Assembly: GCA_043732705.1 (NCBI GenBank)
Contig: JAYTHE010000002.1
Span: 127,608-191,607 of the forward strand
Source of the DNA: Candidatus Omnitrophota bacterium
Lineage (GTDB): Bacteria; Omnitrophota; Omnitrophia; Omnitrophales; Aquincolibacteriaceae
Direction of reading: 5' to 3'
Length of the DNA stretch: 64,000 bases
This document shows positions 4,426 to 15,300 of this stretch, in pieces. A model generated the notes under the pieces. That model ran no database searches. It saw only the letters and a program-made list of their open reading frames with translations, and was not told the origin of the DNA. A program made the translations under genes and the position numbers. Each line of letters starts with the position of its first letter. Within the stretch, counting starts at the first letter, position 1.

Positions 4426-5772
4426 TTGGTTTCATTACTGTTTGATTTGATTTATGTTTTGCCGGCGTTGATTTACGCCCCCGTTTTTTTTGTGAAGAGC
4501 CGCCGTGCGGATGAAAATCCAGGGCTTCTTTTCTCCGAGCGCTGGGGTTGTATTGCCCGGAAAAAACTTGCGCGTTTTCAAGGCAAGCGCGTTTTTTGGA
4601 TTCATGCCGTGAGCGTGGGCGAAGTCATGGTCGCGCGACAGTTTATTCATGCGCTGCGCGCGGAATTAATGTCCGCCACTGCGCCTGAAGCGCAACCGGC
4701 ACATACCGGCAAAAGCCCTTATCACTTTATATTAACCACAGTGACTCCCACGGGTCAAAAGCTTGCCCGCCAATCCGAAGCTGATGATCTCACCGCAATT
4801 TATGTACCTTTTGATTTTTCATTCTGTGTTTCCTCTTTTTTAAATCAAGTTAAACCCGAGGTTTTGGTTTTAGTCGAAACCGAAATTTGGCCCAATTTGA
4901 TTTTACTTTCAGCACAAAAAAAACTGCCTGTCTTTTTAATTAACGCGCGGCTCTCGCAAAAGTCACTCGATGGTTACAGCCGTGCCGCTTTTCTTTTTAA
5001 ATCCGTTTTTTCCGGCATCAAGCGTGTTTTTGCGCAAGACAAAGCCGATGCCGGGCGGTTTGAACGATTGGGGATTCCCCAATCACATATTGAGGTCTCG
5101 GGCAATATTAAGTTTGACGCCGCGGAGCCGCAAAAAAATGATGATACTTACACGCACAAAAATTTTGCATTAACGGAAACGGATAAAGTTTGGATCGCGG
5201 GGAGCACCCATCCGGGAGAAGAAAAGAAAATTCTCGAAGTCTTTTCGCGTTTGCGTCAAAAAAATAAAAATTTAAAACTGATTCTCGCGCCGCGGCATGT
5301 TGAGCGGGCCGAAAGTGTCGCACGTGAAATCGCGGAGACGCCGTTCTCTTTCCGGCGCTGGGGCGAATGCAATGCTTCTTTGGCGTGGGATGTTTTGTTG
5401 GTGGACCAGCTCGGAGTTCTTAAAAACATTTACGCTTTAGGCGACTTTGTTTTTACCGGCGGGAGCTGGATCGAGCATGGCGGACAAAATCCAATTGAAC
5501 CGGCCGCGCATCATTTACCTGTTTTACATGGACCGCATGTTTTTAACTTTAAGCAAGTTTACGAAATTTTGGATTCGGCAGGAGCCGCTCTTTGTGTCGA
5601 CGATACGGAAGTTTGTTTTCAGAAAATGGAGTTTTTTTTAAATCACCCGGAACAAGCGACCGAAATGGGCCGGGTTGCGAGTGAGACCGTGGGGCAATAC
5701 CGCGGCGCGAGCGCGCGCCAGGCCAAACGGATTTTGGAATGTCTTAATATCAAGGAAAGGATAAAAATATGA
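4426..5772 (+). CDS. waaA: 3-deoxy-D-manno-octulosonic acid (Kdo) transferase
   Basis: FWIHAVSVGEV motif at N-terminus of a GT-B fold. Size is typical of KdtA/WaaA (448 aa). Confidence 0.8.
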   Translation: MVSLLFDLIYVLPALIYAPVFFVKSRRADENPGLLFSERWGCIARKKLARFQGKRVFWIHAVSVGEVMVARQFIHALRAELMSATAPEAQPAHTGKSPYHFILTTVTPTGQKLARQSEADDLTAIYVPFDFSFCVSSFLNQVKPEVLVLVETEIWPNLILLSAQKKLPVFLINARLSQKSLDGYSRAAFLFKSVFSGIKRVFAQDKADAGRFERLGIPQSHIEVSGNIKFDAAEPQKNDDTYTHKNFALTETDKVWIAGSTHPGEEKKILEVFSRLRQKNKNLKLILAPRHVERAESVAREIAETPFSFRRWGECNASLAWDVLLVDQLGVLKNIYALGDFVFTGGSWIEHGGQNPIEPAAHHLPVLHGPHVFNFKQVYEILDSAGAALCVDDTEVCFQKMEFFLNHPEQATEMGRVASETVGQYRGASARQAKRILECLNIKERIKI

Positions 5773-6818
5773 ATTTAAAAGGAATGATTAAAGATACGAT
5801 GGAGGAAATGGCGCCGTCTTGCGCAACTTCCAAAGCATTAAACCCATTGCTCGCGATTGGCGGGATTTTTTACCGCCGCGGCTATGAAGCGCAGCGCGAT
5901 AAATATTTAAAAAATCCCAAACTCCGCACGCGGCTTGCCTTTCCGGTGGTCAGTGTTGGAAATTTAACTTGGGGCGGGACGGGAAAAACACCGCTTGTCG
6001 AAGCCATTGTTCGAAAAGTACTTTCGGTCAAGAAGACGCCGCTTGTTTTGACGCGCGGTTACAGCCACGATGAGACGGAGCAAATGAAAAGTCATTTGGA
6101 AGGAGCCATGGTCGCTTCCGGTAAGGATCGTGTTGCGGCCGCCAAGGAAGTATTGAAAGATTATCATGTGGATTTGGGCGTTCTTGACGACGGCATGCAG
6201 CATTGGCCGATCGAACGCGATTTGGAGATTGTCACGATTAACGCGCTTAATCCGTTCGGAAACGGTAAATTGATTCCGCAGGGAATTTTGCGTGAGCCTA
6301 TCTCGGCTTTGGAGCGCGCGCATATCGTTGTGTTGATGCACGTAAATCTTTTGAAAACTCAGGAATTACGCGACTTGCGTAAAAAAGTTGCAGATCTTGC
6401 TCCGCAAGCCAAGCTGGTTCAGGCTTATGTAGAGCCGCTCTTTTTTTATCGCGGACGTGATCATGCGCGAATTTCCTTGGAAAAAATGCGCGGAAAACGC
6501 GTGGCTTCTTTTTCAGGAATTGGCGCACCGCGTTCTTTCCAGCTGGTTTTACAGCGGTCGAAAGTGAAACCTGTCCGTAATTTTGAATACATGGATCATT
6601 ACGATTTCAAAAAGAAGGACATGGAAGAAATTAAGCGCGTCAGCGATTTGGCCGGTGCGGAAGACATCGTGACGACTGAAAAAGATTTTTACCGCTGCAG
6701 AAAACTTTTAAGCGAAACTTTGGATCCGCTTGTGCTCGCGACACGGGTTCAGTTTTTATCGGGTGAAGATATTTTGGAAGATTCTTTAATGCGTCTTTTA
6801 GGAGTTAAACGCGAGTGA
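5769..6818 (+). CDS. lpxK: tetraacyldisaccharide 4'-kinase
   Basis: P-loop VVSVGNLTWGGTGKTPLVEAIV. ATGA overlap with waaA. Confidence 0.8.
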   Translation: MNLKGMIKDTMEEMAPSCATSKALNPLLAIGGIFYRRGYEAQRDKYLKNPKLRTRLAFPVVSVGNLTWGGTGKTPLVEAIVRKVLSVKKTPLVLTRGYSHDETEQMKSHLEGAMVASGKDRVAAAKEVLKDYHVDLGVLDDGMQHWPIERDLEIVTINALNPFGNGKLIPQGILREPISALERAHIVVLMHVNLLKTQELRDLRKKVADLAPQAKLVQAYVEPLFFYRGRDHARISLEKMRGKRVASFSGIGAPRSFQLVLQRSKVKPVRNFEYMDHYDFKKKDMEEIKRVSDLAGAEDIVTTEKDFYRCRKLLSETLDPLVLATRVQFLSGEDILEDSLMRLLGVKRE

Positions 6819-14245: not shown

Positions 14246-15300
14246 TTCGCCGTGTCCTTGTCGTTCAGCCTTACGGTATCGGGGATCTTCTTTTTATTAC
14301 GCCAGTTTTGCGCGCGTTAAGATTGATTCCCACGGTTGAGCGCGTGGATATTTTGATTGGATCGCGTACGCGCGCGGTAATTCAGGCGAATCCCCATGTT
14401 GATGACGTTTATGTGATTGATAAAGATAAAATGCATCAAAATTCTTCCCGTGAAAATTTTTCTTTTTTGAAAGAATTGGGAACGAGCCTTAAAAAACACC
14501 GCTATGATTTACTGCTCGATTATTCGATTCGCGGTGAATACGCTTTTTGGAGCCGCTTCTTTTTAGGAGTTCCTAAACGCGCGGGTTATGCCTATAAAAA
14601 ACGCGCCTTTTTTCATAACATTCGCGTGCCGATTCCCGAAGGTTTTTACGGCAAACATGTGGTTGATTTTGCCTGTGACTTGGCTGAAAAAGCTGGTGTG
14701 CCGGTCCAAGAACGGTTTGTTGAATTCTTTTTTTCAGATAATCAGCAGAAAACGCTTGAGTTGGTATTAAGCCTGCGATTGCCCCAAAATTATTTGACGC
14801 TCAGCCTGGGCGGCGGGGAATCTTGGGGAAAAGACGCGCATTTAAAGCGCTGGAGCGTGGAAAAATTTGCGCAATTAGCCCAACACCTTTTAGACAAAAA
14901 GACAGCTCAAAAAATAGTTTTAATCGGCAGTGCGGGTGAAAAAGAACTTGCCGCGGAGTTTCTAAAGTTGGGTGTGCCTGCCGAAGATTGGACAGGAAAA
15001 CTTTCGATTACTGAAACCGCGTGGGTGATTAAAAAATCGAAGCTCTTTCTCGGCAATGACGGCGGACTTTTACATTTAGCGCGCGCGGTATTTAAACCCG
15101 TTATCGGGATTTACGGCCCTGCCGGTCCGCGTGAATATGGACCTTATCCGGCGGGCGAAGGATCGCTTGCCATATTTAAAATTTCAGATGATGACAAACC
15201 GCGTTATTATAAATTTCGATATGACAAAAATGACCGCAGTTTGCAGGATTTGAGCGTTGAGGATGCAGTTAAGATGGTCGAGTCCAGCGGCGTTATTTAA
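14242..15300 (+). CDS. GT9 family heptosyltransferase
   Basis: VLVVQPYGIGDLLFITPVLRAL ... NDGGLLHLARAVFKPVIGIYGP. Confidence 0.75.
   Translation: MIRRVLVVQPYGIGDLLFITPVLRALRLIPTVERVDILIGSRTRAVIQANPHVDDVYVIDKDKMHQNSSRENFSFLKELGTSLKKHRYDLLLDYSIRGEYAFWSRFFLGVPKRAGYAYKKRAFFHNIRVPIPEGFYGKHVVDFACDLAEKAGVPVQERFVEFFFSDNQQKTLELVLSLRLPQNYLTLSLGGGESWGKDAHLKRWSVEKFAQLAQHLLDKKTAQKIVLIGSAGEKELAAEFLKLGVPAEDWTGKLSITETAWVIKKSKLFLGNDGGLLHLARAVFKPVIGIYGPAGPREYGPYPAGEGSLAIFKISDDDKPRYYKFRYDKNDRSLQDLSVEDAVKMVESSGVI

Follow-up and report, generated by a model that had tools for sequence, protein, structure and literature searches.

The 64,000-nucleotide stretch of DNA analysed here (Candidatus Omnitrophota bacterium, assembly GCA_043732705.1, contig JAYTHE010000002.1, positions 127,608 to 191,607; hereafter the window) carries eight consecutive plus-strand open reading frames (ORFs) that, in its ORF table, span positions 4426 to 15300 and resemble genes for lipid A and lipopolysaccharide (LPS) core assembly (Table 1). 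They are waaA, lpxK, an LpxL-type acyltransferase gene fused to a sequence for a domain of the ELM1/GtrOC1 type, a fusion of a GT4 and a GT9 glycosyltransferase, and four stand-alone GT9 genes; we refer to the five GT9 domains as G1 (the one in the fusion) to G5. This order had been put forward in a preliminary description of the window made from its sequence alone, and it is borne out by the ORF table and by Pfam and NCBIfam searches. We consider it likely that the region is a single co-directional, translationally coupled operon, conserved across Omnitrophota, whose products complete 3-deoxy-D-manno-octulosonic acid (Kdo)-lipid A and assemble an inner core rich in heptose.

Table 1. Positions of the genes and other features of the locus, in coordinates of the window.
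Feature	Position	Strand	Basis and remarks
waaA, Kdo transferase (GT30)	4426-5772	+	Glycos_transf_N PF04413, E 1e-55; same position in relatives
lpxK, tetraacyldisaccharide 4'-kinase	5769-6818	+	PF02606, E 1e-63; TIGR00682
Repeat element, copy 1 (lpxK/lpxL junction)	6818-6932		12-nt terminal inverted repeats CCCGTTAGAGGC ... GCCTCTAACGGG; RNA fold z -4.6
lpxL-ELM1 fusion, 652 aa from the likely start	6971-8929 (mechanical ORF, 687 aa, from 6866)	+	PF03279, PF06258
GT4-GT9 fusion (with G1), 697 aa	8926-11019	+	GT4 Pfam families and Glyco_transf_9; TIGR02195
Repeat element, copy 2 (G1/G2 junction)	11024-11137		Same 12-nt terminal inverted repeats; fold z -3.4
GT9 paralogue G2, 340 aa from the likely start	11128-12150 (mechanical ORF from 11071)	+	PF01075, E 6e-34; TIGR02195
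GT9 paralogue G3	12147-13151	+	PF01075, E 2e-30
GT9 paralogue G4	13148-14245	+	PF01075, E 1e-30
GT9 paralogue G5, TTG start	14242-15300	+	PF01075, E 9e-26
Terminator-like hairpin, operon end	15340-15356	+	
tRNA-Leu(CAG)	15423-15504	+	ARAGORN

Every domain reported by the Pfam scan of the eight ORFs lies above its gathering score. WaaA matches PF04413 with 188 bits against a cut-off of 23.9 and stays under the cut-offs of all five NCBIfam WaaA equivalogs (best 342 against 438 bits), and LpxK passes TIGR00682 (130.7 bits, cut-off 91.95). Domain searches might have failed to recover GT9 in several of the ORFs; instead all five domains match PF01075, with scores of 91-125 bits (cut-off 22). The preliminary description had neighbouring genes overlapping by 4 bp, and start and stop codons do overlap in this way at five junctions (5769, 8926, 12147, 13148 and 14242; ATGA four times and TTGA once), but the remaining two junctions leave gaps, 6818/6866 and 11019/11071, which are occupied by the two copies of the repeat element described below. 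Neither the GC content nor the skew of the locus departs from the remainder of the window, and promoter-like sites are not in excess between 3000 and 16500, where 13 were found and 14.8 are expected from shuffled sequence.

Relatives of the locus were collected from GTDB, with each species represented by a single genome, and 407 places matching the GT4-GT9 fusion were obtained; ORFs were called in the related loci and then matched to the window proteins, and the best 80 loci were examined for gene order (individual loci are cited by L numbers). Nearly all of these best 80 of the 407 are titled Omnitrophota or 'uncultured bacterium' without a phylum, and four are titled Planctomycetia. The order waaA-lpxK-lpxL/ELM1-GT4/GT9 followed by a variable number of GT9 genes is shared by some 80 Omnitrophota genomes at species level, in nearly every locus that is long enough, and a few distant loci, such as L065, have the GT4-GT9 fusion alone. 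An extra stand-alone GT4 gene is inserted after the GT4-GT9 fusion in a deep clade (L063, L069 and L072-L083). We found no description of the locus in the literature on the lipopolysaccharide or heptosyltransferases of Omnitrophota/Omnitrophica, or on Mito_fiss_Elm1.

The two gene fusions are as widespread as the gene order itself. Homologues of the GT4-GT9 protein number at least 120, essentially all of them full length and 54-100% identical, and at least 115 homologues of about 649 aa carry both the LpxL and the ELM1 domains. Both sets come almost entirely from metagenome-assembled genomes of Candidatus Omnitrophota/Omnitrophica, obtained from many independent metagenomes, and about 80 GTDB species genomes encode both fusions as single ORFs. 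The peptides that bridge the domains are highly conserved, reading QWLWxxKRWKYSWTRRILILSDGKPGH in LpxL-ELM1 and EKKILVIKLGAMGD in GT4-GT9, and the Logan assembly of run SRR23617244, made independently of this contig, yields, on a 7.7-kb contig, the exact GT4-GT9 protein together with the four downstream GT9 ORFs. Given the full-length homologues, the independent assembly and the conserved junction peptides, both fusions are, as far as sequence comparison can tell, genuine and ancient, and the claim of the preliminary description that LpxL is joined to ELM1 and GT4 to GT9 stands for the phylum as a whole. The alternative, that the fusions are frameshift or assembly artefacts of this one contig, would have to account for the same ORFs and junctions in so many samples and for an identical protein in a second read assembly, and we give it practically no credence. 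The fusions may functionally couple lipid A acylation to glycosylation.

The N-terminal part of the first fusion (~7010-7852) is a near-complete acyltransferase domain, with PF03279 (Lip_A_acyltrans) matching residues 49-329 of the 687-aa ORF over profile positions 17-294 of 295 (E 6e-50; 170.6 bits against 22.3). It contains the HX4E catalytic motif as HYGNWE, of which the histidine and glutamate are nearly invariant among homologues, and its best sequence match in the PDB is 5kn7, an acyltransferase of the LpxL/LpxM type (E 1e-11). All 17 NCBIfam models for LpxL, LpxP and LpxM score it under their cut-offs, the best being NF006270 at 139 against 248 bits. The C-terminal part (~7865-8926) matches PF06258 (Mito_fiss_Elm1) at residues 414-654 of the same ORF (E 6e-39; 134.4 bits, cut-off 27). 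This domain starts about four residues past the conserved C-terminal LpxL motif QWLWxxKRWK, which leaves essentially no linker between the two. An AlphaFold2 model of it, built with 26 homologues, is a GT-B fold of two Rossmann domains (predicted local distance difference test, pLDDT, 89; predicted template modelling score, pTM, 0.84), and Foldseek relates this model to UDP-N-acetylglucosamine 2-epimerases, MGD1 and WaaF with a probability of 1.0 and a template modelling score of only about 0.5. By sequence, the domain has no significant relative in the PDB. We describe it as a predicted glycosyltransferase, which would act in core assembly.

In the second fusion, the GT4 domain occupies 8926-9996 (residues 1-357) and G1 10009-11016 (Pfam match at residues 429-674). 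The GT4 module matches PF13439 and PF00534 with 98.8 and 119.7 bits, and its best match in the PDB is 7mi0, an uncharacterised glycosyltransferase (E 2e-52). Its resemblance to WaaG is weak, with E 3e-6 to 2iv7 (RfaG) and about 32-46 bits in phmmer searches of the related loci with E. coli WaaG. The two modules fold well in the AlphaFold2 model of the fusion (pLDDT 85), and a pTM of 0.60 leaves their orientation to each other uncertain.

To compare the five GT9 paralogues, 337 GT9 domains were extracted from the related loci and analysed with E. coli WaaC, WaaF, WaaQ and WaaU (annotated K-12 record) as reference, using a neighbour-joining tree of Poisson distances with 100 bootstraps. G1 to G5 are only 21-29% identical to each other, about the same as to the four E. 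coli proteins. For all 337 domains the best match is the window paralogue in the corresponding position; the order G1-G2-G3-G4-G5 is complete in 48 loci, the remaining loci are prefixes of it, and each of the five orthogroups is monophyletic in 100 of 100 bootstraps. Among the 57 complete loci, defined as those that continue for at least 1.5 kb past the last GT9, 41 have all five paralogues and ten lack only G5. Five GT9 domains in a row, called unusual in the preliminary description, are thus present as described but are normal in this phylum, and E. coli K-12 already has four in waa.

In WaaC, Asp13 is the catalytic base, and Lys192, Asp261 and His266 are ligands of the heptose and phosphate of the donor (bioRxiv 10.1101/2021.06.16.448588). 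Equivalents of all four residues are found in all five window paralogues and are near-invariant across the 337 domains, and those of the heptose ligands Lys192, Asp261 and His266 are shared by 94% or more of the members of every orthogroup. The GT9 genes lie side by side on one strand and differ little in length, as would be expected if they were the product of a recent local tandem amplification and were redundant or decaying; their low identity, the five positional orthogroups and the retained catalytic residues all argue against such an origin, which we regard as extremely unlikely. These same three observations indicate that G1 to G5 are probably five distinct, anciently diverged and active enzymes.

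The preliminary description left open which sugar these enzymes transfer, and this part of it is weakened by two lines of evidence, the conserved heptose and pyrophosphate ligands and the genes next to the cluster in relatives. In most relatives the downstream order, as far as it was read, is Fer4-DUF3108-hldA-kdsB-pyrG-kdsA-kdsD-lpxL2-lptC-lptB. A gene for an HldA-type heptose-7-phosphate kinase of 330-350 aa, which is homologous to the kinase half of HldE from E. coli, follows the last GT9 at a distance of 0.4-6 kb in 43 of 83 related loci; 42 of these copies are intact, with E-values of 1e-30 to 1e-69 against E. coli HldE, and one is a 102-aa fragment (E 3e-14). The two loci read past hldA, L087 and L088, continue with kdsB-pyrG-kdsA-kdsD-lpxL2-lptC-lptB, and L003 could be matched from hldA as far as kdsD in the order hldA-kdsB-pyrG-kdsA-kdsD. 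An HldD homologue adjoins hldA in one locus, L063. The close relatives L004 and L006 are like the window in having no hldA immediately downstream. Since the heptose ligands are kept in all five paralogues and hldA is linked to the cluster in 43 of the 83 relatives, ADP-heptose is the likely donor of the GT9 enzymes, and we assume that the genome to which the window belongs makes it. TIGR02195, the model for heptosyltransferase II (cut-off 134.6), is passed by G1 (164.7 bits) and G2 (150.3 bits).

Beyond hldA, the same downstream regions contain a second, stand-alone LpxL-type acyltransferase gene in at least three of the relatives read that far (L087, L088 and L036). It lies between kdsD and lptC at 15323-16192 in L087 and 15277-16215 in L088, and this region is absent from the window. 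The arrangement kdsD-lpxL2-lptC-lptB resembles the kdsD-lptC-lptB-hpf-ptsN region of E. coli.

Several observations weigh against a wholly heptose-building operon. Homologues of GmhA, HldE, GmhB and HldD are absent from the 64-kb window (phmmer with E. coli queries against six-frame ORFs of at least 60 aa), and Pfam scans of its larger ORFs detect no ADP-heptose synthesis family, which confirms what the preliminary description had reported; nor was GmhA, GmhB or HldC seen adjoining the cluster in any relative. G3, G4 and G5 do not reach TIGR02195 (114.6, 104.9 and 96.9 bits) and fall below every other NCBIfam heptosyltransferase cut-off as well, the best match of G4, to heptosyltransferase III, having 114 bits where 170 are required. 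No paralogue passes the model for heptosyltransferase I (TIGR02193, cut-off 185.3; best G3, 99 bits), so that none is singled out as the enzyme that glycosylates Kdo. The neighbour-joining tree, a phylogeny of the kind suggested in the preliminary description, resolved the five orthogroups but did not robustly place any of them as sister to WaaC, WaaF, WaaQ or WaaU of E. coli, the best case being G5 with WaaC in 26 of 100 bootstraps. Finally, we know of no biochemistry for any bacterial enzyme of the ELM1 family or for the LPS of any member of the Omnitrophota.

The low scores of G3-G5 and the lack of ADP-heptose genes in the window are also what would be expected if some of the paralogues, most plausibly these three, transferred a sugar other than heptose and the core were mixed. 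G3-G5 are as distant from E. coli WaaC, WaaF and WaaQ as they are from each other, and CAZy lists a non-heptosyl activity for GT9. However, the lysine, aspartate and histidine that in WaaC form hydrogen bonds with the hydroxyl groups of heptose are kept in every orthogroup at the level given above, G3-G5 included, and in 43 relatives the cluster is linked to hldA. A mixed core thus seems to us unlikely, and we retain the reading in which all five paralogues use ADP-heptose.

A different target for the heptose is raised by a cysteine motif, CxxCx4Cx7C, in the C-lobe of G1 (10912-10962, residues 663-679 of the GT4-GT9 fusion). In the related loci this motif is found in 83 of 84 G1 domains, 42 of 48 G5 domains and about half of the G3 and G4 domains, and it is rare in G2; it is not present in E. 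coli WaaC, WaaF, WaaQ or WaaU. The region is modelled with low pLDDT (53-61). The protein heptosyltransferases TibC and AAH have a GT9-like GT-B core that uses ADP-heptose, and four cysteines in a C-lobe insertion, which in TibC are Cys339, 342, 358 and 370 and form an iron finger (PMC4358343). By analogy, the four cysteines of the Omnitrophota proteins may form a metal site, and their distribution, together with a weak match of G5 to TIGR04414 (21.8 bits against a cut-off of 200), would be consistent with some or all of the GT9 enzymes heptosylating proteins instead of LPS. However, the spacing of the cysteines is not that of TibC, the Omnitrophota proteins have neither the N-terminal beta-barrel nor the thumb, and their domain lengths are those of LPS heptosyltransferases. 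Their genes stand between waaA-lpxK-lpxL and, in relatives, hldA and the kds and lpt genes, and G1 and G2 score above the cut-off for heptosyltransferase II. We therefore regard protein heptosylation as very unlikely and LPS as the substrate of the five GT9 enzymes.

We propose that the products of the operon would act at the cytoplasmic face of the inner membrane, in the manner of an assembly line. LpxK would phosphorylate the tetra-acyl disaccharide to give lipid IVA, to which WaaA would add Kdo and the LpxL domain a secondary acyl chain. The fused GT-B domain of the ELM1/GtrOC1 type would then add a sugar, G1 to G5 would transfer up to five heptoses from ADP-heptose, each to a different acceptor position, and the GT4 domain fused to G1 would add a sugar of the hexose type. 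We infer the order of the steps, the acceptors, and the sugars attributed to the ELM1 and GT4 domains.

The closest known counterpart is the waa (rfa) cluster of E. coli and Salmonella, in which the same families, a GT30 Kdo transferase, GT9 heptosyltransferases and a GT4 hexosyltransferase (WaaG), are clustered for the inner core. The four annotated GT9 proteins of E. coli K-12 waa share the catalytic aspartate and the heptose ligands with those of Omnitrophota. The Omnitrophota locus differs in that its five GT9 domains form an uninterrupted tandem, in that lpxK and lpxL belong to the same operon, and in its two obligate fusions; no one-to-one orthology to WaaC, WaaF, WaaQ or WaaU is resolved for its GT9 proteins, and neither a ligase nor a core kinase (WaaP, WaaY) is encoded in the cluster. 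The acyltransferase domain shares the full-length PF03279 match and the HX4E motif with LpxL and LpxM proteins such as 5kn7, and differs from them in lying under the NCBIfam equivalog cut-offs and in being fused to a domain with a glycosyltransferase fold.

The C-terminal domain of this fusion belongs to the same Pfam family (Mito_fiss_Elm1, clan GT-B) as GtrOC1 of the Acinetobacter baumannii outer-core (OC) locus, which is, to our knowledge, the only bacterial member of the ELM1 family to have been studied. GtrOC1 is predicted to be a core glycosyltransferase that makes an early linkage of the core (PMC4172580). The gene gtrOC1 is essential in A. baumannii, and its knockdown phenotypes cluster with those of lipooligosaccharide and Lpt genes (PMC11975115). 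GtrOC1 is a stand-alone protein, whereas the Omnitrophota domain is fused, with almost no linker, behind the last conserved motif of LpxL.

Fusion of neighbouring genes in the locus is not limited to the two pairs found in the window. While LpxL-ELM1 and GT4-G1 are fused everywhere in the loci of the phylum, G2 and G3 are fused in 12 loci (L003, L025, L028, L031, L032, L034, L036-L038, L041, L042 and L056), G4 and G5 in four (L018, L019, L061 and L067), and a candidate single ORF for WaaA and LpxK occurs once (L068). That different pairs of neighbours are fused in different lineages may be a sign that the enzymes work close together. A stronger version of this hypothesis, in which the core-assembly enzymes of Omnitrophota would form one physically coupled assembly line, is speculative and in our judgement improbable; if it held, a multi-enzyme complex would channel lipid A acylation together with at least seven glycosyl transfers and might produce a defined heptan. 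The Cys4 motif of many of the GT9 domains, as a putative metal knuckle that resembles the iron finger involved in the oligomerisation of TibC, would fit this picture.

Two copies of an element of about 110 nt, which is predicted to fold stably, occupy the two intergenic gaps of the operon, which has no others. The copies are about 80% identical over the element and 86% identical over a core of 58 nt, and their terminal 12-mer has five matches in the window, where 0.14 are expected by chance, with a weaker match at 29494-29505. The lpxK/lpxL junction measures 156 bp in the window and about 10 bp in the closest relative, L004, which does not have the element; the 12-nt repeat is likewise absent from 86 of 88 loci, and one of the two exceptions is the Logan contig of the same organism. 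On these comparisons the element is specific to this genome, and it could be an insertion resembling a miniature inverted-repeat transposable element, or a structured RNA. Because of an ATG within it, the two mechanical ORFs that follow begin too early, with a shared spurious peptide, MKF[KE]ES.LSKDVI.... The true start of lpxL-ELM1 is likely to be the GTG at 6971, which is preceded by GGAGAG and gives a protein whose length, 652 aa, agrees with the 645-655 aa of its homologues. The true start of G2 is likely to be the GTG at 11128, supplied by the right arm of the second copy; homology of G2 with its relatives resumes at 11129.

Upstream of the operon, the context dprA-RDD-(topA)-xerC is common to the window and its relatives. 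In the distant relatives L002 and L003, topA (~700 aa) separates xerC from a small hypothetical gene; in the window there is only a gap of 409 bp at 2997-3406, with no topA remnant there or anywhere else in the 64 kb, and topA is also lacking from the sequence examined in the closest relatives, L004-L007. The gene at 3406-4284, labelled 'phage integrase', was considered as a sign of a mobile island, and this was rejected: it is a gene of the XerC/D type with a conserved position upstream of waaA in L002 and L003. On the other side, synteny with most relatives breaks at 15340-15504, after the last GT9. A scan of the window against Rfam at gathering thresholds gave zero matches, not even to the tRNA-Leu(CAG) called there by ARAGORN. 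The mechanical ORF of the following SIMPL/DUF541 gene (15466-16263) begins at a GTG at 15466 and overlaps this tRNA, so its start is probably over-extended.

Elsewhere in the window, an aerobic respiratory block lies on the minus strand at 24402-37138. It encodes subunits IV, III, I and II of an aa3-type cytochrome c oxidase, subunit II with a cytochrome c domain, together with SCO1/SenC, subunits of alternative complex III (ActD, an NrfD-like subunit and, putatively, a 1042-aa ORF) and a multihaem cytochrome of the c7 type. Further genes include a 1238-aa ORF at 37684-41400, a bacterial SET-domain protein at 53472-53936 (PF00856, E 7e-21) and a homologue of TMEM175-type potassium channels at 57341-57922 (PF06736, E 2e-31).

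Every enzyme family of the locus is already known, and its proteins are in public databases under generic names; the finding is therefore incremental and not surprising. No experimental finding on the outer membrane of the Omnitrophota, which are a widespread and largely uncultivated phylum, is known to us; the locus predicts that the core on their Kdo-lipid A is unusually rich in heptose. By the logic of 'Rosetta-stone' proteins, the two conserved fusions and the lineage-specific ones suggest which LPS enzymes act together. The LpxL-ELM1 fusion in particular offers a functional clue for the ELM1/GtrOC1 family, whose members it would place beside the late acylation of Kdo-lipid A, at the start of core assembly.

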